From positions 512,001 through 576,000 of the forward strand of contig OZ241875.1 in the NCBI GenBank assembly GCA_965203325.1: DNA of 64,000 nt, read 5' to 3'. Shown in pieces: positions 4,077 through 16,554 of this stretch (positions are counted from its first letter, which is position 1; every line of letters begins with the position of its first letter). This DNA comes from a bacterium (GTDB taxonomy: Bacteria > UBA8248). Both the position numbers and the translations under genes were made by a program. Below the pieces are notes generated by a model that made no database searches, had not been told where the DNA came from, and saw only the letters and a list, made by a program, of their open reading frames with translations.

Positions 4077-5381
4077 CTAGTCGACCGCGTCCTCGCCCCG
4101 GGCGTGGGCCAGTTCGCGCGCGCTCGGGTTGACCGACGGGCGGAAGGGGACCTCGCAGACCTCCGCGCGGTCGGGCCGGCCCGGCTCGCCGGCGTACTCG
4201 TCCGGCAGCCAGACCAAAAGCTCGGTCCCGACCGCCGACTTGCCGATCGGCACGTAGCCCAGCGCGATGTTGCACCCCAGTTCCGGGGCGTGCCACGGCG
4301 AAGTCAGGTAGCCGATAGGGTCACCTCCATCGGCGTCCGAGACCAGCCAGAAGTCGGGCGCGTAGTCGTCGATCGGCTTGCCGCCCAGCTTCACCCCCAC
4401 CATCACCATCGAGAACGGCGGACGCCCCGCTTCGATCTCGGCCCGCATCCGCTCAAGCGCCGCCCGGCCGATGTAGTCGCCCCGCTTTTTGCGCGGCACC
4501 TGGTAGGCCAGGTTGCACTGAAAGGGCACCGTCTCGTGGTCGATGTCCTGCCCCCAGGAGAGGATGCCGGCCTGGATGCGGCGCTGGTGGCCGGGGGCGG
4601 TGACCATGAGCCGGTGCGGCTCGCCCGCCTCAATCACCGCGCGCCAGAGCTTCTCGGCGTGCAGGGTGGCGTCGCGCAGGTAGATCTCATAACCCTTCTC
4701 TCCCGAGAAGCCGGATTGGGTGACGACCACCGGGCAGCCCCCGACCTCGGCTTCCAGGACCCCGTAGTAGGGGATGTCCCGGACGCCTTCGCCCACCAGA
4801 TCGACCATCAGCGCGAGCGACTTCGGGCCCTGGATCTGCAGCGGGCAGACGTCGATCTCGTTGATCTCCACGTCCATCCGCTTCCCGACGTTGACGCCCT
4901 GGAGCCAGTAGAGCAGGTCGGAGTCCGCCAGCGAGAACCAGAATTCCTCCCCGGCCAGGCGCAGCAGGACCGGGTCGTTCAGAATCCCGCCCTTCTCGTT
5001 GCAGAGGATGACGTACTTCGCCTGCATCGGCCGGATGCGGGTCGCGTCGCGCGTGATGACGTAGTCGACGAACCGCTCCGCGTCCGGCCCCTTCACTTGA
5101 ATCTGCCGCTCGACCGCGACGTTCCAAACCGTCACGTGGCTCGTCAGCGCCTCGTGCTCGACGGCGGCGCCGCCGTCTTCGGGCCTGACGTAGCCGCGCG
5201 GATGATAGACGCGGTTGTAGACCGTGGCCCGCCAGCAGCCCGCCTCGTGGGACAGGTGCCAGTAGGGCGACTTCCGCACCCGCGTGGAGATGAGCATTTC
5301 CACGGGCGTCCGGCCGCTCTGGCGCAGGTTGACGGGAACGATGCGGTCGGACTGGTCGACACTTTGCGGCTGGCCGTTCAT
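4077..5381 (-). CDS. GcvT-family aminomethyltransferase / THF-dependent demethylase (DmdA-like fold)
   Basis: WNVAVERQI, GGILNDPVLLRL, QIQGPKS, SGFSGEKGYEIY, RRIQAGILSWGQD motifs; GGAGG RBS before ATG 5381. Confidence 0.85.
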   Translation of the reverse strand: MNGQPQSVDQSDRIVPVNLRQSGRTPVEMLISTRVRKSPYWHLSHEAGCWRATVYNRVYHPRGYVRPEDGGAAVEHEALTSHVTVWNVAVERQIQVKGPDAERFVDYVITRDATRIRPMQAKYVILCNEKGGILNDPVLLRLAGEEFWFSLADSDLLYWLQGVNVGKRMDVEINEIDVCPLQIQGPKSLALMVDLVGEGVRDIPYYGVLEAEVGGCPVVVTQSGFSGEKGYEIYLRDATLHAEKLWRAVIEAGEPHRLMVTAPGHQRRIQAGILSWGQDIDHETVPFQCNLAYQVPRKKRGDYIGRAALERMRAEIEAGRPPFSMVMVGVKLGGKPIDDYAPDFWLVSDADGGDPIGYLTSPWHAPELGCNIALGYVPIGKSAVGTELLVWLPDEYAGEPGRPDRAEVCEVPFRPSVNPSARELAHARGEDAVD

Positions 5382-5513
5382 GGCTCCTCCTGCTCCGCCG
5401 CGCTTCACGGCTTCCCGGCGCGGCTGCGGTGCGCGAGCGCCTCTGAATGCCCAAGTGGCGGCTGTTGAAATAGCTCCGTGGAGCGATTTTGGTTGAGCGC
5501 ACGCTTTTGAAAT

Positions 5514-5997: not shown

Positions 5998-8550
5998 CTG
6001 AAAGACGCCATCACCAATCCAGCCGAGAGCGCTTCGCCGACGCCTGCGCGGGCGACGATTGCCGTGATCGGCGCCGGCATCGTCGGGAACTGCCTGGTGG
6101 GGCATCTGGCGGAGCTGGGGTGGGACGACCTGGTGCTGATCGAAAAGGGGCCCCTGCCCAACCCCGGCGGTTCGACCGGCCACGCCTCGAACTTCATCTT
6201 CCCCACCGATCACGACCGCGAAATCACGCTGCTGACGCTGGAGAGCCAGCGCCAGTACGCCGCGCTCGGCGTCAACACCACGTGCGGCGGCATCGAAGTG
6301 GCTCGCACGGAAGCGCGCATGGAAGAGTTGCGCCGGCGGATGACCTCGGCGCTGTGCCGGGGCATCGAGGCCGAGCTGCTCGATCCCGCCGGGGTGGTCG
6401 CCAGGGTGCCGTTCGTGAACGGCGACGTGATCCTGGGCGGCTTCTACACGCCGAGCGTATCGGTGGTCGACCCGGTCCGGGCGGGCGCCATCATGCGCGA
6501 GCGGGCGCAGGCCAAAGGAGCCCTGACCGTGCTGGATAACACCGAGGTCACCGGGCTTGAGGTGTCGCGCCCGGCGTTCGGCCGTCCGCGGGTCCGGGCC
6601 GTGGCGACGACGCGCGGGGAGATAGAGGTGGAGCAGGTGGTGATCGCGTGCGGCGTCTGGAGCCCGCGGGTCGCCGCGCTCGCCGGAGCGACCATCCCGC
6701 TTACCCCGGCGGTGCACCAGATGGTCGACATGGGCTCGATCGACCTGCTGCAAAAAACGGGAAACGAGATCGCCTACCCGATCATCCGCGACATGGACAC
6801 CTTCATGTACGAGCGGCAGAGTCACGAGGCGATGGAGATCGGCTCGTACGCCCATCGCCCCATCCTGGTGCGGCCCGACGACATCCCATCCAATACCGAG
6901 GCGGAGCGGACGCCCACCGAGCTGCCCTTCACCGGCGACGACTTCGCTCCGCAGCTCGAGCACGCCCGGGCGATCATGGGCGAATTGCTCGCCGGTTCCG
7001 AGATGCAGTATTCGGTGAACGGACTGCTCTCGCTGACCCCGGATGCGCGGCAGGTGCTGGGCGAGACCGCCGAGGTGGAGAAGCTCTGGTCGGCGGCCGC
7101 CGTCTGGATCAAGGAGGGCCCCGGCACCGCGCGCCTGATCGCCGAGTGGATCACCCACGGCTATCCGCGCCTGTGCGATCCGCACGGCTCGGACATCACG
7201 CGGTTCTACCCGCACGAGCGGACCGAGCAGCACATCCGGCAGCGATGCCGCGAGCACTTCAACAAGACGTACGGAATCGTGCATCCGCGCGAGCAGTGGG
7301 AGTCCGAGCGCGGGGTGCACCGGGCGCCGTTCCACGACCGCACAGCGGACCTGGGCGCCGAATTCTTCGAAGCGCACGGCTGGGAGCGGCCCCAGTGGTA
7401 CGCGTCGAACGAGGATTTGGTCGCCCGCTACGGCGTTTCGGACCGCCCGCACGAATGGGACCGCCGCTGGTGGTCGCCGATCATCAACGCGGAGCACCTC
7501 CACATGCGGGAGAAGGCCGGGATCGTGGACTTGAGCGCCTTCCAGATCTTCGACGTCACAGGGCTCGGCGTCGTGCCCTACCTGGAGCGGCTGACGGTCA
7601 ACCCCTGCGACCGCCCGGTGGGTTCTTCGATCTACACCCCGCTGCTGACGCCGGAGGGCGGGATTCGCGCCGACCTCACCATACAGAGGCTGGCGCACGA
7701 CCGGTTCCGGGTCGTGACCGGCGTCTTCGACGGCGCGCGCGACGAGGTCTGGTTCCGCCGCCATCTGCCCGGGGACGGCTCGGTCCAGTTCGAGAACCTC
7801 TCCTCAGCGCTCTGCACCATCGGGGTTTGGGGACCGGACGCCCGCGCGCTGCTCTCAGATATTGCCGACGCCCCGCTGACACAGGAGGCGTTTCCCTACG
7901 GGACGACGCAGGAGGTGATCATCGACGGCGTTCCGGCGACGATGCTGCGCATTTCCTACGTGGGCGAGAGCGGATGGGAGATCTACGCGCGGGCATCGCA
8001 CGGCGCGCGCCTGTGGGACGCGATCCGGGAGGCGGGCCGCGCCTTCGACGCCCGGCCCGTCGGCATCGGCGTCTACGGCGCCACGGGACGCCTCGAGAAG
8101 GGATACGCGCTCATGGGCGCCGATCTCACGTCGGAGTACTCGCCGGTGGAGGCGGGCCTGGCGCGGCCCCGCGTGAAGGCCGCGGAATTCATCGGGAAAG
8201 AAGCCTACCTGAAAGCGCGCGACAATGGTCCGGCGGCGAAGCTGTGTACGCTGACGGTGGACAACCACGTCGGCGAATCCGGGATGCTGCGTTTCCCCGC
8301 CGGCAGCAGCGAACCGATCCTGACGCTTGAGGGCGAGCGCCTCGTCGACGCCAAAGGAAGAGAGTCCTTCGTCACCTCGGCCGGCGCGGGACCCTCCCTC
8401 GGCAAATACCTCCTGCTCGCCTATCTGCCGATCGAACAGACGGCACCCGGCAACAAGCTGCAGGTGCAATACATGAACGAGCGCTTCCCGGTGAGCGTGG
8501 CTCCGCACTCGGCGATGTTCGACCCCGAGAACGCCCGCATGAAAGCATAG
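5998..8550 (+). CDS. Dimethylglycine oxidase/dehydrogenase-like flavoprotein (FAD domain + GcvT domain)
   Basis: GAGIVG FAD motif, GGSTGHA covalent-flavin His motif, GWERPQW, RISYVGESGWEIY, RLEKGY; start uncertain (CTG 5998 after GGAG, or GTG 6064). Confidence 0.88.
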   Translation: MKDAITNPAESASPTPARATIAVIGAGIVGNCLVGHLAELGWDDLVLIEKGPLPNPGGSTGHASNFIFPTDHDREITLLTLESQRQYAALGVNTTCGGIEVARTEARMEELRRRMTSALCRGIEAELLDPAGVVARVPFVNGDVILGGFYTPSVSVVDPVRAGAIMRERAQAKGALTVLDNTEVTGLEVSRPAFGRPRVRAVATTRGEIEVEQVVIACGVWSPRVAALAGATIPLTPAVHQMVDMGSIDLLQKTGNEIAYPIIRDMDTFMYERQSHEAMEIGSYAHRPILVRPDDIPSNTEAERTPTELPFTGDDFAPQLEHARAIMGELLAGSEMQYSVNGLLSLTPDARQVLGETAEVEKLWSAAAVWIKEGPGTARLIAEWITHGYPRLCDPHGSDITRFYPHERTEQHIRQRCREHFNKTYGIVHPREQWESERGVHRAPFHDRTADLGAEFFEAHGWERPQWYASNEDLVARYGVSDRPHEWDRRWWSPIINAEHLHMREKAGIVDLSAFQIFDVTGLGVVPYLERLTVNPCDRPVGSSIYTPLLTPEGGIRADLTIQRLAHDRFRVVTGVFDGARDEVWFRRHLPGDGSVQFENLSSALCTIGVWGPDARALLSDIADAPLTQEAFPYGTTQEVIIDGVPATMLRISYVGESGWEIYARASHGARLWDAIREAGRAFDARPVGIGVYGATGRLEKGYALMGADLTSEYSPVEAGLARPRVKAAEFIGKEAYLKARDNGPAAKLCTLTVDNHVGESGMLRFPAGSSEPILTLEGERLVDAKGRESFVTSAGAGPSLGKYLLLAYLPIEQTAPGNKLQVQYMNERFPVSVAPHSAMFDPENARMKA

Positions 8551-8642: not shown

Positions 8643-9995
8643 TCATTCATCAGTCGCATTTGCCTCCCCCACCGCATTGTCGAACACCACCACCGGATCA
8701 AAGTCCGCGATATCCACCCGGGGCAATGAAACGCCCGCGTAGGCACCCGCCGCAAGGAACTTCTCGAGCAGGTCCGCATCGCTCAGCGGCCTCTCCGGCA
8801 TCCCGCGCGCCACCCCGCAAAAGCCGGTTGCGGAGCGGCCGTCGCCGAGCGTCAGCGTGAGGCGAATGCACTCGGGGTATTTCGCGCGCATGGCGTCGGT
8901 GGAAAGGTCTGGGGCGCGCTTCATACTCACCCGCGCCATGAGGGCGGACTTCTCGGGGCCGATGGCGTCGGGCACCAGATCCTCGAAGCGCACCCGCCCG
9001 TGGACCGCGGCGCAGGCCAGGGCGTAAGGCAGGCTGAACTGCATCTCCTGCGGCGTGGCCGGGTCTGGAAAGACGAGACTCTCATAAACGAGCTTCGGCA
9101 CTTCGGCATGAACACCTGCGACCTCGTTCACGCTTGCGCCGAGTTCGGCCATGAGCGCGTTCATCTGCTCGATGGCCGCGAGCGCCGCCGAGCAGACAGG
9201 GCTTGTCTTGAACAAAAGGCCCGGCTCGCACAGGCGCCAGCGCTTTCCGATGGTTTCGAGTTCGGCTTCGAGGACCTCACCCCGGTTCAGCAGCTTCAGG
9301 TAGCCTCGCTCATTCTCGAACGCGTCTTCCGGCCCGGTAAGCCCGGCCCCGGCCGCCCGGGCGAACGTAACGGCCCGCCGCGCGGCCTCGCCGACCAGGA
9401 GGGGCTTGGCGTCCGTGCCGAGCACCGCCTTCCCACCGCCTGAAGCGGCTGCCGCCAGGCCGATAGCGCTCGTCATCGCGTCCTCATCGAGCCCGAGCAG
9501 GCATCCTGCGGCAACTGTCGCGCCCGTGAGGCCGAAAGTGGCCGTGCTCCACCAGCCGTCGAAATAGTGCGCATGCGTGCATATATCGGCGAGAACGTAC
9601 GCCACCTCCGAACCCGCGACGAAGGCGCGGCGAAGCGCGTCGGCATCAGAACCTGCTTCCTGCGCCAGGGCCATGGCGGCGGGCAGCACCACCGCCGAGC
9701 CGTGCATGATGCCCGTGTAGGAGGTATCGTCGAAGTCCCAGACGTGCGCCGCCGTTCCGTTCACCAGCGCAGCGGCTTCGGCGTCCGCCCGCCCGCCCGT
9801 CGCGAGCGTCGCCTTCCCCTCCCCGCGCAAAGTGGCCTGAGCCAGAGCGCGCACCGATGGATGTGCGCCCCCCGCGAGCATGACGCCCATGGTGTCGAGA
9901 ATGGCCCTGTCCGCAACTTTATTGACGTCTGAGTCGATGCGTTCCAGACCACAGGCGAACGCCGCGAATTGTCTGGCGATTGTCTGTGTACTCAT
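8643..9995 (-). CDS. MmgE/PrpD family protein
   Basis: AALVNGTAAHVWDFDDT, HGSAVVLPA, QFSLPYALA, GMPERPLS motifs. Confidence 0.88.
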   Translation of the reverse strand: MSTQTIARQFAAFACGLERIDSDVNKVADRAILDTMGVMLAGGAHPSVRALAQATLRGEGKATLATGGRADAEAAALVNGTAAHVWDFDDTSYTGIMHGSAVVLPAAMALAQEAGSDADALRRAFVAGSEVAYVLADICTHAHYFDGWWSTATFGLTGATVAAGCLLGLDEDAMTSAIGLAAAASGGGKAVLGTDAKPLLVGEAARRAVTFARAAGAGLTGPEDAFENERGYLKLLNRGEVLEAELETIGKRWRLCEPGLLFKTSPVCSAALAAIEQMNALMAELGASVNEVAGVHAEVPKLVYESLVFPDPATPQEMQFSLPYALACAAVHGRVRFEDLVPDAIGPEKSALMARVSMKRAPDLSTDAMRAKYPECIRLTLTLGDGRSATGFCGVARGMPERPLSDADLLEKFLAAGAYAGVSLPRVDIADFDPVVVFDNAVGEANATDE

Positions 9996-10044
9996 GTGGC
10001 GGCGGCGCTGTTCCGGGGCGGGGGCAGATGCCCCTTCAACCACC

Positions 10045-10455
10045 CTACGGAGCGGGTGGCGCGGACGTGCGGCGGATGAGTTCCCTGAGCGACTCGCTCT
10101 GGACTTTGATCGCCTCCATGTTTTCCCGGTGTCGGCTTTCTATGGCCTCCATCGTTTCCCGGTGCTGGTCGCTTTGCGCCTCTTGCTGACGATTAAGCAC
10201 CGCCATGGTTTCTTGATGTTGCGCCATGGCTGCTTGATGTCGGCTGTCCAGCGCCTTCATGGTCTCTCGATGCTGCGCCATGTTTTCCCGGTGCTGGGCG
10301 TCGCGCTGACGCGATGCCTGGCGCATGATGTAGAGACCATACGCGATCAGGCTGCATTGCGCGGCGCCGACGAGAGCGGCGACCCATACGGCGGCTTGTT
10401 GCGCCGCGAGAGCGGCTTCTTGCAAGGCGAGGCTTGCGGTTTCGTATTCCGTCAT
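10045..10455 (-). CDS. Small membrane-anchored coiled-coil protein with H(R/Q)E(N/T)M repeats
   Basis: GGAG RBS, ATG 10455, TM segment followed by about six HRENM-like units. Confidence 0.7.
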   Translation of the reverse strand: MTEYETASLALQEAALAAQQAAVWVAALVGAAQCSLIAYGLYIMRQASRQRDAQHRENMAQHRETMKALDSRHQAAMAQHQETMAVLNRQQEAQSDQHRETMEAIESRHRENMEAIKVQSESLRELIRRTSAPPAP

Positions 10456-10632
10456 TCTGTTCTCTCCATTATTTTCTCGTGGAGATAGCAAGCCAAGCCA
10501 GTTTCACCCAGAGCGCGAAAGATGTCAAAGCGAAGGTGCGTCGGCATTCCGCCCGTTCTGTTCACAGGAAAGTCATTCTTGGATGCAGACGCAACGAACC
10601 TGTGCAAGACGGTGAGGCGTGGTGATTTCCCC

Positions 10633-11949
10633 TTAATACTCGAACACTGTGGGGCCGTCCACTTTTTCGCAGAGCGCGGCGACGGCGGCGCGGGCGGCGC
10701 CGAGACGCCATTCGCGCTCGGCCTCGGGCGTCCGGGAGGGGTCGCCGAATGGATGATGGAAGTGGCCGGCGCGGTTGTTGACGATGCGGTTGACCCCGAT
10801 GTCGCGCGCCACATCGGGCAGACAGGTGACGATGACGGTGGGGATGCCCTCCCGCTCCAGGGCTCTCGCCAGCGCAGCCCCGCTGCGCGTGCCGGTGCCT
10901 CACGTGGCGGGGAGCACGACGCCCTCCACCCCGGTCTTTTTGAGCTCGGCGGCCCAGGCGCGGCCGATGCCGTCCATCTCGACGAAGGCGCCGCCGTTCC
11001 CGCAGGTGCTCAGGAAATCATCGTGGAGTTCGGCGATCTCGCCCTCGTCCGCAAGACGCCGGAAGGCGTCCACGGCGAGCATGCGGTCGGGCTCCTCGTT
11101 CACGAACACGGTGTTGAAGCCCCCGTGGATCGAGATGAACGTGCCGCCCGGAAGCGCGTCTTTCCCCTCGAATGAGTAGGTGGCCCAGTTCCCGTTCCTC
11201 GATCCGGAGAAGCGATCCGGGTTGCCGGGGGGGACCATGCCGCCTTCCGATACGATGGCGATGCGGGCTTTCTTGAGGTCGGCGACGGGTTCGGGGGGCG
11301 CTATCTCTTCGAGCGTCGGGACGTCGAGTTCGGTCCGGTAGGGTTCCCCCTTGATTTTCCTCAAAATCATGTCGACGGCGCGGCGTGAGGTCGGGAGTTC
11401 TGCGATTTCGTTGTAGCGGACCCCCCGAGGGAGGTAGCCCTCCTCGGCGGCGCTTCCAATCTTATCCCCACGGGCGAGCTTGCGTCCGAGCCGTGCGGCG
11501 GCTTCCAGGGCCTCCTCCATGCCGACGGCGGAATCGGCGGCGGGGACGGTGTGGACGCCGGTTCCGGCGGCGGGAAAACCCGGATTCTCGGGGTGCATGG
11601 CGGTGACGACGGGAATCCCGGCTTCCTCCACTGCGCGGCAGACGGCGGCGCAGGCGAGCCCGTAGCGCCCGGCGTTGAAGGCGGGTCCTGCAATAAGGAG
11701 ATCGGGCGCGTATTCCTTGATGAGCGAAAGCGCTTCTGCGGAGCATGTCTCTTCGTTTTCAGCGAAAAGGCCGTCCCCCGCGAAGACGGTACCGACGACT
11801 TCTGCGTCCTCACCCAGGATTTTATCGAGCAGTACACCGGGGCCGACGGGACCAGGCCGGGCGGACACGGGATGACCGCTCCTCTCCTCGCCCCCGACGC
11901 CCGCGAAGAACTGGTTCAAGTAGTGAACGACCCGAAGTGTAGCGCTCAT
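10633..11949 (-). CDS. grdB: Glycine/sarcosine/betaine reductase selenoprotein B (438 aa, Sec at codon 350)
   Basis: VVHYLNQFFAG, AGPAFNAGRYG, HGGF motifs; in-frame TGA at 10902-10900 (PAT-U-GTGTRSGA) is followed by 88 more homologous codons to TAA 10635-10633; GGAGG RBS. Confidence 0.92.
10872..10888 (-). promoter_or_regulatory. Bacterial SECIS-like hairpin of grdB
   Basis: GCGCAGC-GGG-GCTGCGC perfect 7-bp stem beginning after an 11-nt spacer 3' of the UGA. Confidence 0.75.
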
Positions 11950-12028
11950 GACTTGGCCTCCTGATATGGATTCATTCAAAACCCATTTTAGCACGCGCGG
12001 CGAACACCTGGTTGAACGACTCCCGCCC

Positions 12029-13312
12029 TCAATAATCCTTGCCCACCATGTTGTTGATGTCCTTCGCCCACTCGTTGGCGTAGTAGTCGCTGTCGATCAG
12101 GGTGAAGGCCTCGCGGGTGTTGACGCGCTTGCCGTTGTAGAACTCGACGACTTCCGAACCGATGACCCGCTCCACCGCGGGGGCGTCGATGCGCTCGCCC
12201 TGCATGCCCTTGGAGATGACGGCGTCGGCTTCGGGCACATGAAAGACGAGCGGGAACTCGCCCGAGCCCGGCCGGCCCACCTCGTAGATGATCGGAACGG
12301 CGCGCACGCCCATCTGTTCGAGCGCCTGGACGGTGAGCCAGTAATCCACCGTGGAGTTGCCGCCGCCCTCGAAGGCGAGGACCGCGCCATCCGCCTTCAA
12401 GAGGTTGGCGAGCTTGGCGACGTATTGCGCCGAGCGCTCCTTGAGCGCCTGGTTGTCGTGGTGGCCGCGCGTGATGATCACCCCTGCGAAATTGAGGTCC
12501 ACCCCGTGTCGGCGGTAGAGCTCGTAGATGAGCGGCATGTTGCAGTGCAGGTAGGTCGGCGCCTTCTGCTGCGTCTTGTAGTTCGCCCCCACCACCGCGC
12601 CGTCGAGCATCTCGTTGGGGTGAATGAGCGTGGGAAGCGAATCCCCCAGGTTCCTGCCGTACATGAACGTCTGCACCATGGACGCCTGGTGCATGACCTG
12701 ATCGACGAAGACGACCCGGGGGAGAGCGGGGTCGACCTCGCCGAGTTCGAAGGTTTCCAGGCGAACGGGTTCGAGTTCCGCCGTGCGCTCGGCCAGCCGG
12801 GACGCGATTTTCAGCGTCGCCAGGCGAACGGCGTCGTCGTGCGCTTCGTTCGATGCGCCCTCCAAAGGCTCGTAGCAGGCGACGAGGTTCGCGGTCTCTG
12901 AATTCGTGCAGTGCACGGTCCCCGGGCCGGACATGTCGATGATCCCTTCCCGGAAAGTCATGATGCCCGTCATGGGACCCAGGAAATAAGTGGAGCTGAT
13001 GACGCACATCCCGGCGAGCTTGTGGGTGCGGCCCTCTCCCGCTGTCTTCGCCGGGCCGAGAAATCCCGGAAATGCGCATGAGCGCCCGTTTACCTTGTAG
13101 ATAGGCTCGACCGCATCGAGGACGTTCGTGATGCGCACCGACTCGCCCGGTATGGCCGCGTGAAAGCTCACGTCCTTGAGACCGCCGTCTTCGAGCGCCA
13201 GTTCGCGGAGTTCATCGGCATCCACGGTGAGCGTTTCGTCTTTGTACGCGAAGCGCTTCCCGATGATGATTCTGGAAACGGGAAATATACCCATCTCGAG
13301 TCGCATGGACAT
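12029..13312 (-). CDS. grdE: Glycine/sarcosine/betaine reductase component B proprotein (GrdE/GrdI-like)
   Basis: MRLEMG, PGESVRITNVLDAVEP, EGIIDMSGPG, PTLIHPNEMLDGAVV, KERSA motifs; lies between grdA and grdB. Confidence 0.88.
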   Translation of the reverse strand: MSMRLEMGIFPVSRIIIGKRFAYKDETLTVDADELRELALEDGGLKDVSFHAAIPGESVRITNVLDAVEPIYKVNGRSCAFPGFLGPAKTAGEGRTHKLAGMCVISSTYFLGPMTGIMTFREGIIDMSGPGTVHCTNSETANLVACYEPLEGASNEAHDDAVRLATLKIASRLAERTAELEPVRLETFELGEVDPALPRVVFVDQVMHQASMVQTFMYGRNLGDSLPTLIHPNEMLDGAVVGANYKTQQKAPTYLHCNMPLIYELYRRHGVDLNFAGVIITRGHHDNQALKERSAQYVAKLANLLKADGAVLAFEGGGNSTVDYWLTVQALEQMGVRAVPIIYEVGRPGSGEFPLVFHVPEADAVISKGMQGERIDAPAVERVIGSEVVEFYNGKRVNTREAFTLIDSDYYANEWAKDINNMVGKDY

Positions 13313-13321
13313 CGTTGCCCC

Positions 13322-13774
13322 CTACCCTGCCGCGCGCATATCGGCGAGATCGCTTTCTATCTGCTCCAGATCGAGCACCATCTCCATCATGAGAAGTTTA
13401 TCGGCATAAACGTCCTCGGGAACCTGTGCCCGCACAGTTTCTTCCAGGATATGGAAAACGGGGAGTCCCAACGGGACTCCCGCCAGGGGCCCGGCCCAGC
13501 TCGGGTCCCCGGTGGTCAGCGTTTCGACAGCGAGCCGAAGGCCTTCACCGGGCATTCCCAACACCACCATCAGGTTCTCCGGGCCGATTTCATCCGCTAT
13601 CGACTTGATGGCGGCCTGGTTCTCCAGGTCCATGGCGCCCGCGGAGGTTCAGACGAAACACTCCGTCTTCTGAAATACGACCTCCGCCCCCGCCGCTTCG
13701 AGGCACTCGGCGATCAGCGGGCCGGGAACACCGTCGCGCTCGCCCAGCGCGATCACCTTCTTTCCATCGAACAT
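13322..13774 (-). CDS. grdA: Glycine reductase selenoprotein A (150 aa, CxxU, Sec at codon 42)
   Basis: [19 protein letters not shown]...TECFV-TGA(13651-13649)[40 protein letters not shown]. Confidence 0.95.
13608..13633 (-). promoter_or_regulatory. SECIS-like hairpin of grdA
   Basis: AUGG-A-CCUGG-AGAA-CCAGG-CCG-CCAU, beginning after a 15-nt spacer 3' of the UGA. Confidence 0.6.
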
Positions 13775-13806
13775 GAATACCCTCCACTCCCCAAAAAACG
13801 AACGAA

Positions 13807-15225
13807 TCACGCCTCTATCAGCACCGAAGCCCCGTCGGCCTGCCGGGACATCCGGCCCAGAAACAAGCTTCCTTTGGCGAGGATCATTGTACTCTCAAGG
13901 CGGCCCGCCCGCATCCTCTCGAGAGCGTGTCCGAGAAAGGGAATCCCAGCGGGAATGTGTCCCTGCGTGGGCGCGAAACCGGGCATACCGTGCGTTTCGA
14001 TGAAACCCGGTATCTCCTCGCGGGCGATCTCCCCACCCATGACCGCCAGGGCGGCCAGCATCCTGTAATTCGCAGCCGCCACGTCTCCCGCTCCCGACGG
14101 CAGCATGATCTCCGGATTGTGCAGTTCGACGGCGTACTTATCGACGCTGGTCAGCCTGCGCCCGGCGCGGGCCAGCGGGTCGCGCACGAGCGCTTCGGCC
14201 AATCCTTGCGGGGTGGAGGGCCTGCCCGCCGCGTGGCGTCCGGCGATCTCGAGATTCACACGGGGGCCATCGTCCGGATTTTTCGTGAGAAAAAACGCTA
14301 CTCCGCCCAACACGTCTTCCAGGACGGGCACCCCCTTTCCCAGATGGAAATACGCCTTCATCCCGAGCTTCGCCATCGAACCGCCGCCCACGACGACGGC
14401 GTTGCCGACGACGCCCGCCTCTATCAGGGCCGCCGCGTGCACGAGCGCATAGACCGGCGCCGCGCAGAAGGACTTCACGTCGACGCCGGCGGCATTCACA
14501 CAGCCCGCCATCTCGGCAATCGTCTTTGCGAGATTGCCGCCGCCTCGATTGTAGCGATCCCCGACCGCCTCTTCCGAGCAGCTGATGACGTACTCGATCG
14601 CTTCGGGAGCGATGTTCTCCTGTACGAGAAGGCGGCTGAGCGCGTATGCGCCGCTGGCCTTGGCCGAGAGGTTTTCGAGAAGAATGCGGGCGTCCAGGGA
14701 CTCATCCGTTTCATGATCGCGACGGGCGCACCCGATGAGTCCTCCATCCTGAGATAGCGGCAGGGCCTCGCCTCCCTCGATGCGCCGGGAAATGTCTTCT
14801 TTTCCGTATTCCTTTGAGGGTTTTTCTTTCGTGAGAAGAGCGGAGGCGGCCTCTGAATCCACTGCGCCCGGAACACGGCGCTCCTTATCGAGCAGTATCA
14901 ACCCGAACTGATCCGCAGCTTCGAGTAAGGAATAGAAAGCATCCTGCGGGAGGATTTCCCCAAAATGGCCCTCAGGCGAAGCGCCTGCGAGTGGATTCTC
15001 GTACCACGGAGCCGGGATTTCCCCTAAATTCTCCGGCGGCAGGTTGCCGATGAACACCTGATTCGGCGGGTAGCCGACCATTTCGTCAAAAGTGCGCAGG
15101 CTGGCGAATACGTCGCCCGGTGTTTGTCCCCTCCCTAAAGCCTTGCGCCAGGGCTTCGAGCCGTAGCGAACCAGATCGGGAACGTGAACGAGAACGTTCG
15201 CCGCCGCGCGCAGATACGCCGTCAT
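13807..15225 (-). CDS. grdC: Glycine/sarcosine/betaine reductase component C, FabH-like subunit
   Basis: [64 protein letters not shown] motifs. Confidence 0.92.
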
Positions 15226-15279: not shown

Positions 15280-16065
15280 CTATCCCGCGGTGTAGCCGCC
15301 GTCGGCATAGAGAATGTGGCCGGTGTAGAAGTCGGACGCGCGCGATGCGAGGAACAGGAGCGGCCCGGCCAGATCCTCGGGTTCGCCCAACCGCCCTTTC
15401 GGGACCCGGCTCACGATGTTCTCGCGGGTCTTCACCGCCTTGGGCGCGTCGGTGAACATCCAGTCCGTGAGCACCGAGCGGAAGACGGTCGGTCCGACCG
15501 CGTTGACGGTGATCCCCGTCGGCCCCAGTTCGCAGGCGAGCGCCTTCGTGATCCCGTCGACCGCCGCTTTCGACGCGCAATAGGCGGTGTAGCCCGCCGG
15601 GTGGCCGAGAATCCCGCGCGTAGAGGAGACGAGGACGATCTTGCCGCCGTCTCCCTGCGCCTTCATCCGCCGCGTCGCGGCGCGCGCCAGAAGCCACGAC
15701 TGCGTGACGTTGGCGTCCATGACGTCGGCGAACGCATCGGGCGCCATCTCCTCGATCATCCCTACCCTGTTGATCCCCGACGCCACGACCAGTATGTCCA
15801 GGCGGCCATAGGCCTCGACGGCCTTCTCCACCATGGCGTCGGCGATAGCTTCGGTTTCGGGGCGCGCGTTCACCACTTCGACCGACGCTCCCAGCTCCCG
15901 GCACTCGCCCGCAACGGCTTCGAGCACGTCGGAAGTGCCGGCGGTCAGCGTGAGGCGGCACCCGGCCCCGGCCAGCGTCCGCGCGGCGACCGCCCCGAAA
16001 GCGCCCGAAGCGCCGGTGATGAGCGCGGATTTTCCGCTTACGTCAAAAAGTTCAGAGGGTTTCAT
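15280..16065 (-). CDS. SDR oxidoreductase (KduD / gluconate 5-dehydrogenase-like)
   Basis: TGASGAFG, YCASK, ADGG motifs; start MKPSELF (the longer ORF runs into a repeat). Confidence 0.88.
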   Translation of the reverse strand: MKPSELFDVSGKSALITGASGAFGAVAARTLAGAGCRLTLTAGTSDVLEAVAGECRELGASVEVVNARPETEAIADAMVEKAVEAYGRLDILVVASGINRVGMIEEMAPDAFADVMDANVTQSWLLARAATRRMKAQGDGGKIVLVSSTRGILGHPAGYTAYCASKAAVDGITKALACELGPTGITVNAVGPTVFRSVLTDWMFTDAPKAVKTRENIVSRVPKGRLGEPEDLAGPLLFLASRASDFYTGHILYADGGYTAG

Positions 16066-16189
16066 AATATGGCGTCCGAATGGGGGATCACGACGGGCGT
16101 CCCGCAGGCGTGAGAGAAGATTCCGTATGCCCCATGCTAGGTATCGAGAGGGCGGTATGTCAAGAATGCGGGGGCAAACTCGATCGATG

Positions 16190-16461
16190 AGGGGCTGTTG
16201 AAAAAGTCCTCTTTTCAGGGGGTGGAGGGGCATCCCTCTCGACTGAAAAGCACCCCCCCTACCCCCCCTTGTCAGGGGTCAAACGCGAGTGATGAACGAG
16301 CGTTTGCATAAGCCATTGACGAGAAACACATCGTCTTGCAAAACCTCCCTCTTCGGTCGGTTTTGACCCCTGACAAGGGGGGGTAGGGGGGGTTGGTTTT
16401 ATGGGATTTCCCTTTCAAGGGGGGTTGTCATTACCCTCTCAGGGGATTTTTCAAAAAGCCC
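16190..16461. repeat. Palindromic mosaic element (family A arms, conserved A2 core, MITE-like ends)
   Basis: GGGGCTGTTGAAAAA ... TTTTTCAAAAAGCCC ends; ~90-bp core also at 18061, 26358 (rc) and 29963 (rc). Confidence 0.88.
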
Positions 16462-16554
16462 ACTTACGGCTGTTTCGAGTAGGGATTCGGGGGTGGTGGC
16501 GATCTGGAATAACCAGCGAGAACACGGGAGAGCCGCCATTCTCGTTTCCTCGCC

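Follow-up and report, generated by a model that had tools for sequence, protein, structure and literature searches.

Enzymes of the Grd type are the textbook sign of amino-acid fermentation by strict anaerobes, and have lately come to mark the reductive glycine pathway as well. The question raised by the present locus is what such an enzyme does when residues expected of a glycine reductase are missing from it. The locus is a grdC-grdA-grdE-grdB operon in a 64-kb stretch of bacterial DNA (the window, meaning the whole stretch analysed), and a sequence-only reading of it had proposed a distinct reductase subfamily which acts on an onium substrate and needs no Schiff base. On balance, the operon probably encodes a functional selenocysteine (Sec)-dependent Grd-type reductase of a separate, apparently undescribed lineage, here called the Asn-Tyr (NY) lineage, which would have a different substrate and would not make acetyl phosphate. 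The features of the operon are listed below; the outer coordinates of each gene include the stop codon.

13807..15225 (coding 13810-15225), minus strand: grdC-like gene, 472 aa, thiolase-fold acyl carrier subunit with Cys254 and His369
13322..13774 (coding 13325-13774), minus strand: grdA, selenoprotein A, 150 aa, with Sec42 encoded by the TGA at 13649-13651
13615..13628, minus strand: candidate selenocysteine insertion sequence (SECIS) core of grdA, a CCUGG-NNNN-CCAGG hairpin 23 nt past the U of the grdA UGA
12029..13312 (coding 12032-13312), minus strand: grdE-like gene, 427 aa, protein B partner subunit
12578-12580, minus strand: codon of Tyr245 in the grdE-like gene; Asn244-Tyr245 stands at the pyruvoyl-Cys column in site alignments
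10633..11949 (coding 10636-11949), minus strand: grdB-like selenoprotein gene, 438 aa, with Sec350 encoded by the TGA at 10900-10902
10872..10888, minus strand: candidate SECIS of grdB, a 7-bp hairpin with a GGN loop, 14 nt past the U of the grdB UGA

The four genes are closely packed from 10633 to 15225 when TGA is read as Sec, with intergenic gaps of 32, 9 and 79 bp. All four frames are intact and the only in-frame TGA codons are the two expected for Sec. The compact operon described in the sequence-only reading checks out in its coordinates and in all of its traits. GrdA carries the motif E-C39-F-V-U42 (C-x-x-Sec) and scores 203 bits against NF040748 (cut-off 130) and 202 bits against PF04723. 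The GrdC-like protein passes the equivalog NF040746 for protein C beta with 564 bits (cut-off 450). The two protein B subunits match broad families only and miss every specific NCBIfam model. The GrdE-like protein scores 355 bits against the broad family PF09338, but only 258 against GrdG (NF040793, cut-off 780) and 140 against FarE (NF053623, cut-off 675). The GrdB-like protein scores 401 bits against PF07355 and 415 against TIGR01918 (cut-off 65), a subfamily-level match with Sec in place, but stays below the cut-offs of GrdB (TIGR01917, 396 vs 602), GrdF (NF040794, 422 vs 800) and GrdH (NF040795, 352 vs 775).

The GrdB-like protein reads A-T-U-G-T-G-T-R-S-G-A (U350-G-T-G353-T-R-S356, that is UxxGxxS), while the commonest GrdB form, found in 70 of 128 compared rows, is S-T-U-G-T-C-T-R-C-G-A (UxxCxxC). 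UxxC is still given as the GrdB motif in the available part of a 2026 review (PMC13188914). In the available part of PMC9751293, homologs of Grd were filtered by a glycine-type GrdB motif consisting of AHGGxD[QTAP], RV[IL]PxD and TxGNxTxV. The corresponding stretches of the window protein, compared by eye, are IHGGFNT, RMLAVD and STCGNGGAF, and it fails both the glycine-specific GrdB and the sarcosine-specific GrdF motifs as they appear there. The GrdE-like protein reads G-A-N-Y-K-T-Q-Q-K, compared to S-G-N-C-V-[SA]-[AP]-C-D-K in canonical GrdE and GrdG. Tyr245 thus takes the place of the pyruvoyl-precursor Cys, the second Cys has become Gln, and the stretch is shorter by one deleted residue. 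Both the UxxGxxS motif and the loss of the precursor Cys had been pointed out from the sequence beforehand, and both are confirmed. Going by what is established for GrdE, the missing Cys would speak against a pyruvoyl Schiff-base mechanism, in agreement with the earlier suggestion that no Schiff base is needed.

These traits are not a peculiarity of one genome. The closest database proteins are labelled Nitrospinae or Nitrospinota metagenome-assembled genomes (MAGs) by their sources, and by the labels of close relatives the operon-carrying family belongs to Nitrospinota. The phylum was sampled with 51 species genomes, of which 36 have a GrdB-like match. Thirty genomes carry an ortholog with 58-95% identity; every one of them belongs to the family of the window genome, in which they make up 30 of 42 (the window genome included). 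The order grdC-grdA-grdE-grdB is found in every locus that is long enough, across six genera (L012-L015, L122 and L125-L129). The motif U-G-T-G-T-R-S-G-A is invariant in all 29 readable genomes, the thirtieth being cut by a contig end, and G-[AG]-N-Y-K-T is invariant in the window GrdE and in the 10 orthologs of it for which a locus was read. The hairpin after the grdB UGA is kept in 11 of 11 sequences, with none of 77 pair cells broken and two pairs showing compensatory synonymous changes; support for it comes from the alignment alone, the single-sequence fold past the UGA being no better than that of shuffled sequences (z = 0.09). Five pairs of the grdA hairpin (alignment columns 24-37) are kept in 8 of 11 sequences, with 3 of 55 cells broken. 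Since frame, order, motifs and hairpin pairs are all kept in the orthologs, the four-gene set is under selection and is not a relic. In the relatives L012 (8194-10000) and L014 (8099-10000), an insert of 1.8-1.9 kb lies between grdE and grdB, compared to 79 bp in the window; that of L012 holds ORFs (open reading frames) of 247 and 159 aa.

The genome encodes selD, selB, selA and tRNA-Sec (selC), the last located away from the other three. The absence of selABCD, which the sequence-only reading had named as part of what would refute it, is therefore not observed. The selD gene (G000:C1:1726679-1727641, locus L006) has an in-frame TGA, and its product is probably a Sec-containing selenophosphate synthetase. 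Three further ORFs of 174-205 aa without TGA (G000:C1:3076038-3076430, 2665631-2666032 and 2498551-2498862; L002-L004) match the C-terminal third of the GRDB family only, with 31-42 bits, and are possibly PrdB-like or GrdB-related oxidoreductases that do without selenium. The genome also encodes heme-copper oxidase subunit I (COX1, 511 bits); therefore the host is able to respire oxygen. The window stretch or parts of it were found in sponge metagenomes of several studies, one of which covers all 30 bins of the stretch with contigs that are a few percent divergent.

The phylogenetic position of the two protein B subunits is also separate. When 47 related GrdB proteins were labelled with NCBIfam models, 25 passed the glycine-reductase model, two the sarcosine model and one stood at the betaine cut-off (770.5 of 775); the window clade and several other odd types passed no GrdB-type model. 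A maximum likelihood tree of 97 GrdB rows (quick search, SH-aLRT support, long branches flagged) was made from the 80 best genome loci and the phylum's own loci, with a single GrdH-like row. The 12 rows of the window clade form one branch (support 99), and all labelled GrdB, GrdF and GrdH-like rows fall in a different clade of 71 rows (support 100). Grouping with characterised enzymes, which would have spoken against a distinct reductase subfamily, is thus not seen, and the subfamily proposed earlier stands on this position and on the missed B-type equivalogs. In the GrdE tree (77 rows), a split with a support of 93 sets the NY types apart from all GrdE and GrdG of the Cys type, from the GrdI-like row and from two other types. 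The core N-Y-[KR] clade has 34 rows (support 100); within the tree the window clade has a support of 99, and its pairing with a sister group that includes a Dehalococcoidia MAG protein has a support of 97.

The sister of the window clade in the GrdB tree (support 96) is a paralog from the same genus. It belongs to a grdA-grdC-grdE-grdB cluster present in three genomes (L130 on G029:C2, L131 on G035:C1, and G032), with the motifs U-G-S-G-T-R-S in GrdB and N-Y-K-S-A-M in GrdE. Upstream of this cluster lie genes for ATP-binding cassette (ABC) transporters, for an exporter of the TauE/SafE family and for an IclR regulator, a setting which could mean that the paralog acts on a sulfonated substrate. 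Sister-class genomes (G001-G004 and G007; L133 and L136-L141) carry several GrdE/GrdB pairs each, with a single grdA-grdC and no GrdD. These pairs are of a further type that passes no NCBIfam equivalog, with Phe or Tyr at the Cys column in six of the seven read (L141 differs) and U-G-T-C-T-R-C-G-S in all seven.

Beyond the phylum, the 120 best GrdE database matches are 43-96% identical to the window protein. Tyr occupies the Cys column in every one of them, preceded by Asn in 119; their labelled sources are Nitrospinota, Dehalococcoidia, Chloroflexi, Burkholderiales, Thermodesulfobacteriota and Desulfobaccales. A further 77 metagenome loci were fetched by an alignment to NY-type GrdE whose pattern contained N-Y, which makes N-Y given by construction in this set. 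The other traits were free to vary. The readable GrdB motifs are UGTGTRS (28), UGSGTRS (12) and UGTGTRC (7), with no UxxC, so that UxxG is present in 47 of 47. GrdC is of the His type described below in 26 of 26 readable loci, GrdD and TrxB occur in 0 of 77, and a weak TrxA-like gene occurs in four. The co-occurrence of traits across genomes asked for by the sequence-only reading is therefore found. All four traits of the NY type (Asn-Tyr GrdE, UxxG GrdB, His-type GrdC and no GrdD) are present in the window. The second Cys of GrdE (N-Y-V-Y-A-C) and that of GrdB (U-G-T-G-T-R-C) are kept jointly, in 7 of 7 loci versus 0 of 40 otherwise, which suggests that the two residues may act as a cross-subunit pair. 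The loci concerned are L189, L191, L197, L198, L204, L205 and L217, which probably form one clade; L017 and L051 show the same combination. As far as our searches show, the window operon represents a Nitrospinota-affiliated, sponge-associated clade of a widespread NY-type variant that is apparently undescribed in print. Full-text literature searches turned up no publication describing a Grd lineage with these traits; the available part of a Sargasso Sea study of 2005 lists one grdA and one grdB (PMC1088965).

The fate of the acetyl group is the second point in which the operon departs from glycine reductase. The window genome is a single contig of 4.39 Mb, 95.5% complete by markers, and GrdD was not found in it (best NF040747 match 20 bits, cut-off 350). 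GrdD is below the cut-off in all 51 phylum genomes as well, with a best score of 35 bits. As a positive control, the same model scores 605 bits in Paraclostridium dentum, whose locus (L074) has the order grdX-trxB-trxA-grdE-grdA-grdB-grdC-grdD. Searches of the 64-kb window by tblastn with the Paraclostridium queries did not find homologs of TrxA, TrxB, GrdD or GrdX; a TrxB (thioredoxin reductase) gene lies elsewhere in the genome (362 bits, cut-off 343). The earlier observation that grdD and trxAB are missing from the operon is thus upheld, and for GrdD it extends to the genome. Among loci with GrdC, GrdD is present in 49 of 53 with the canonical Sec motif, the other four ending 1.0-2.3 kb past grdB at contig ends, and in none of 15 with a non-canonical motif. 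In profile searches AckA passes in one and Pta in none of the 51 phylum genomes, and neither was found in the 42 genomes of the operon-carrying family. Because GrdD, AckA and Pta are all missing, the product is probably acetate or acetyl-CoA rather than acetyl phosphate, a point that the sequence-only reading had not anticipated, and the acetyl thioester on GrdC would then probably be hydrolysed or handed to CoA. Two AcsA-like genes 6-10 kb from the operon, within the window, fit acetate release but prove nothing.

GrdC has a matching signature. All 66 GrdC proteins compared have the acyl-carrying Cys254, which aligns with the active-site Cys of FabH. The 18 GrdD-less GrdC proteins have in common Lys24, Arg224-Tyr225, Lys251, Lys290 and His369, positions at which Thr, Met-Asn, Arg, Asn and Gln stand in at least 90% of the 48 GrdD-linked GrdC proteins. 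The window GrdC carries the GrdD-less signature (His369, Lys290 and Arg224-Tyr225).

From the observed genes, motifs, conservation, phylogenetic separation, co-occurrence of traits and absences, we infer each of the following chemical steps, together with the identity of a leaving group X and the fate of the acetyl group. The GrdE-like/GrdB-like pair would bind a carboxymethyl-X substrate without a Schiff base, because the pyruvoyl group cannot form. Sec350 of GrdB would displace X and become carboxymethylated, and the carboxymethyl group would move to Sec42 of GrdA. Cys39 of GrdA would then cleave it reductively, giving an acetyl thioester on Cys254 of GrdC. The acetyl group would exit as acetate or acetyl-CoA, perhaps aided by the lineage-specific His369 of GrdC, and oxidised GrdA would be re-reduced by the general thioredoxin system of the cell.

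Several points weigh against this mechanism or limit how far it can be taken. A search of PDB sequences found no solved structure related to the GrdB-like or the GrdE-like protein. The loss of the Cys shows only that no pyruvoyl group forms at that residue, and another carbonyl or another form of activation is possible. A role of His369 in acetyl release is tentative: in the profile alignment of GrdC with FabH (probability 88.5%), the catalytic His of FabH falls two residues off His369, at the edge of a 16-residue gap. The GrdD-less GrdC proteins also probably form one clade, so their common residues may reflect a single historical event, and the N-Y built into the metagenome search adds nothing of its own. 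The absence of GrdD, AckA and Pta rests on profiles; an unrelated phosphotransacylase or another user of acetyl phosphate could exist. Evidence for expression goes no further than a weak hint that relatives transcribe these genes. Seven short contigs of a sponge metatranscriptome, with 88-98% identity, lie on grdB, grdE and grdA of close relatives, and none cover grdC, the dehydrogenase gene or most of PrpD; as contigs without a control for DNA carry-over, they cannot show absence, level or rank of expression.

The substrate was sought in the surroundings of the operon, where the following genes lie.

15283..16233, minus strand: short-chain dehydrogenase gene (Pfam adh_short), with a true start probably later than 16233
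10045..10491, minus strand: ORF of 148 aa downstream of grdB, no Pfam or NCBIfam match
8643..10043 including the stop codon (8646-10043), minus strand: MmgE/PrpD family gene (Pfam), 1 bp after the 148-aa ORF
6064..8550 including the stop codon (6064-8547), plus strand: DAO+FAO_M+GcvT protein (Pfam), dimethylglycine/sarcosine dehydrogenase-like
4077..5513 including the stop codon (4080-5513), minus strand: GcvT-family methyl-group transferase, most like DmdA (NF009133)

The neighbours named in the sequence-only reading (dimethylglycine-oxidase-like, GcvT and MmgE/PrpD genes) are present as described; what fails is their conservation with the operon. The DAO+FAO_M+GcvT gene passes no NCBIfam equivalog. 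Such a dimethylglycine-dehydrogenase-like gene adjoins the operon in two of the eight same-contig cases in the genus, namely the window genome and its nearest relative (G026; L012), and lies 0.7-3 Mb away in the other six. The best model of the GcvT-family protein is DmdA (the dimethylsulfoniopropionate demethylase, NF009133), at 262 bits with a cut-off of 410, ahead of GcvT itself; among five related genome loci a DmdA-like gene is seen near the operon in L012 only. The MmgE/PrpD ortholog is beside grdB in four of seven same-contig cases (G000, G026, G027 and G021) and beside the dimethylglycine-dehydrogenase-like gene in seven genomes of the genus (G000, G026, G031, G014, G017, G018 and G016); the window genome has 12 MmgE/PrpD copies. 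One ortholog, G030:C1:2181224-2182597, has two in-frame TGA codons and may be a pseudogene, a sequencing error or a case of recoding. The short-chain dehydrogenase gene, 57 bp upstream on the operon strand, is possibly co-transcribed with the operon; it is kept in L012 and L014 only, and homologs of the 148-aa ORF are at the equivalent position in L012 and L013. A promoter scan gave a match at 16134-16163, inside the dehydrogenase region, and the terminator-like sites on the operon strand fall inside genes; both are matches to a consensus only. Between the dehydrogenase gene and an EamA gene, 16245-16500 is a multi-copy repeat, where contig depth rises from about 10-25 to more than 1000 in three metagenome runs and reaches 333 in an RNA run, with many loose ends.

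Outside the genus, the flanking genes of one genus bear no relation to those of another. In the wider lineage, the 90 ORFs that flank 26 loci include regulators of the IclR type, carboxylate transporters (TctC and TRAP), ABC systems of several kinds and enzymes of mixed function, and no BCCT or OpuAC betaine-transporter domain was found among them. No single transporter or enzyme is common to the flanks across genera or across the lineage, and the neighbourhood was therefore rejected as a guide to the substrate. Acyl-activating genes lie near the operon in several genera; one example is a pair of CoA-transferase subunit genes directly after grdB in L128 (10519-12229), from the low-GC genus g8 (38% GC). 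Of the possible substrates, glycine betaine or another onium compound is given a minor share of the expectation; halo- or sulfo-acetate-like compounds are given roughly half of that, glycine or sarcosine activated in some other way slightly less again, and the remainder is left to something unforeseen.

An onium substrate, the specific proposal of the sequence-only reading, is a doubtful prospect for which no positive evidence emerged. Such a betaine-type reductase would convert glycine betaine to trimethylamine, or act on an analogue (dimethylsulfonioacetate or arsenobetaine, for example), and Tyr245 would assist in binding the charged head group; such an enzyme would be a special case of the proposed mechanism with X named. 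The host lives in sponges, which contain osmolytes of this betaine or sulfonium type, and dimethylglycine-dehydrogenase-like and DmdA-like genes lie near the operon here and in L012, but these methyl-amine neighbours adjoin the operon in only the two cases noted above. The transporters speak in the same direction, as BCCT and OpuAC are missing from the 90 flanking ORFs and carboxylate transporters recur. The GrdE-like protein lacks the processing Cys, as does GrdI of betaine reductase, described as unprocessed in the available part of PMC10838667. Phe is at that column in the GrdI-like protein of L067, and Phe or Tyr in the F-type proteins of the sister class. An aromatic residue is also present in FarE, which serves fluoroacetate and not an onium compound; therefore it is no pointer to onium substrates. 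The GrdH score of the window protein is furthermore below its GrdB and GrdF scores, and the GrdH-like row sits in the canonical clade and keeps CxxC, neither of which holds for the window protein.

It seems less likely still that the enzyme, like FarEB of Synergistota, reduces a substituted acetate that is neutral or carries a negative charge (a haloacetate or sulfoacetate, for example). FarB and FarE are the one studied precedent without the CxxC and the processing cysteines, according to the available part of PMC10838667, and in the Far orthologs, which show both losses, the motifs are U-G-T-S-S-R-[CG] (FarB) and W-R-Y-W-E next to a deletion of six residues (FarE). The window proteins are not close to them: identity is 29-30% for E and 35-38% for B, which is below the 41-47% shared with canonical GrdB, and the FarE score is far under its cut-off. 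The recurring carboxylate transporters of the wider lineage would suit such a substrate, as would the IclR and TauE/SafE genes directly upstream of the same-genus cluster in three genomes, but the TauE link belongs to the paralog and not to the window operon. No farA-like antiporter or radical-SAM gene lies beside the window operon.

That the enzyme is a glycine or sarcosine reductase after all, with the amine activated by, for example, a carbonyl derived from Tyr245 or another residue, is improbable to a slightly greater degree. GrdA and GrdC are near canonical and pass their equivalog cut-offs, GrdF and GrdG are the top-scoring specific models for B and E, and glycine-producing demethylases are nearby in the window genome. 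Asn-Tyr at the exact pyruvoyl position in 119 of 120 matches would also fit an essential catalytic residue, and Tyr-derived quinone cofactors occur in other enzymes. Yet the TIGR01917, GrdF and GrdG cut-offs are missed widely, and we know of no chemistry that would make a pyruvoyl group from Tyr. The published GrdB and GrdF motifs, as given in the available part of PMC9751293, are likewise not matched. A silent or decaying relic is very improbable: an oxygen-respiring host is an unusual home for a Grd-type enzyme, but the four intact frames with only two expected TGA codons, the frame, order and motifs kept in orthologs of 29 readable genomes down to 58% identity, the compensatory changes that preserve the post-UGA hairpin, the complete Sec machinery and, as a weak hint, the metatranscriptome contigs on the grdB, grdE and grdA of relatives all argue against it.

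The NY-lineage reductase with a different substrate is thus preferred, and it affects how related sequences are read. Pipelines that annotate metagenomes name every homolog "glycine reductase" or "betaine reductase". The present results suggest that a large share of such calls from marine, sponge and other environmental metagenomes belongs to a lineage that is unable to make the pyruvoyl cofactor. The lineage is also without GrdD and, in this phylum at least, has no way to use acetyl phosphate. Metabolic models in which NY hosts are taken to reduce glycine, form trimethylamine or carry out substrate-level phosphorylation are probably in error. More tentatively, and with less than even confidence, the NY type may be a selenoenzyme class of oxygen-respiring bacteria from many phyla that reductively splits a non-amine or quaternary leaving group off carboxymethyl substrates without a carbonyl cofactor and passes the acetyl group directly to CoA or water through a GrdD-independent, His-type GrdC. 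If this is true, the NY-type route would be assimilatory or detoxifying and not an ATP-yielding fermentation. Alternatively, Asn-Tyr at the old pyruvoyl site could be converted to a Tyr-derived carbonyl cofactor, restoring amine chemistry under oxygen. The lineage is a defined target for new Sec-dependent C-X cleavage, with four genes, two Sec codons and diagnostic residues, and the second cysteines that are kept or lost jointly allow the roles of the GrdB CxxC and the GrdE cysteines to be probed.

Compared to the glycine reductase of Peptostreptococcales (Paraclostridium dentum, L074), the window operon has homologous A, B (E+B) and C-beta components, Sec in both GrdA (CxxU) and GrdB, GrdA and GrdC proteins that pass their equivalogs, and the thioester Cys of GrdC. 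It differs in a GrdB that is 41-47% identical, has UxxGxxS in place of UxxCxxC and misses TIGR01917, and in a GrdE with Tyr for the pyruvoyl-precursor Cys and a one-residue deletion. GrdD is missing from the genome, and TrxA, TrxB and GrdX do not adjoin the operon. The window GrdC has His369, Lys290 and Arg-Tyr224-225 where the glycine reductase protein has Gln, Asn and Met-Asn. The gene order is C-A-E-B, and the host can respire oxygen and has neither AckA nor Pta.

The D-proline reductase PrdA/PrdB is a distant homolog only, since the window scores (PrdB 85 bits, PrdA 32 bits) fall well short of the cut-offs (300 and 700). Prd requires neither GrdA nor GrdC, both of which the window encodes. 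Sarcosine reductase (GrdF/GrdG) provides the best-scoring specific NCBIfam models for the window proteins (422 for B, 258 for E), but the cut-offs of 800 and 780 are missed, and the GrdG-type rows still have both cysteines and cluster by themselves within the canonical group. The GrdF motif is not matched either, as it stands in the available part of PMC9751293.

Betaine reductase (GrdH with GrdI; L067 of Anoxynatronum sibiricum) shares with the window operon an E-type subunit in which an aromatic residue stands where the processing Cys would be (Phe in the GrdI-like protein of L067, Tyr in the window protein). This points to a mechanism that may proceed without a Schiff base. Unlike the window protein, which scores 352 against the GrdH cut-off of 775, the L067 GrdH-like protein scores 770.5, has UGTCTRC and sits in the canonical clade, and its locus holds GrdD 9.9 kb from the grdH-like gene.

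The closest parallel in the lost residues is the fluoroacetate reductase of Cloacibacillus porcorum MFA1. In the available part of PMC10838667, its FarB is without the CxxC, its FarE is without the processing cysteines, and the proposal is made that Far feeds into the GrdA and protein C that the host already has. Among the Grd-type proteins B studied so far, no other is reported to be without both sets of cysteines. FarE orthologs were found in 13 of 268 Synergistota genomes; six Far loci were read for the motifs and identities given above. Neither the transporter gene nor the radical-SAM gene of the far operon has a counterpart beside the window operon. An aromatic residue at the old Cys column is common to the GrdI-like row, the Far proteins and the NY type. 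Judging from these sequences, the first Cys after Sec was lost at least twice, in lineages that would be unable to form the pyruvoyl group, whereas the betaine type keeps it. To what is known of these systems the present analysis adds a His-type signature in GrdC, the lack of GrdD, AckA and Pta across the phylum, the coupling between cysteines in GrdE and in GrdB, and the direct comparison with the Far orthologs.

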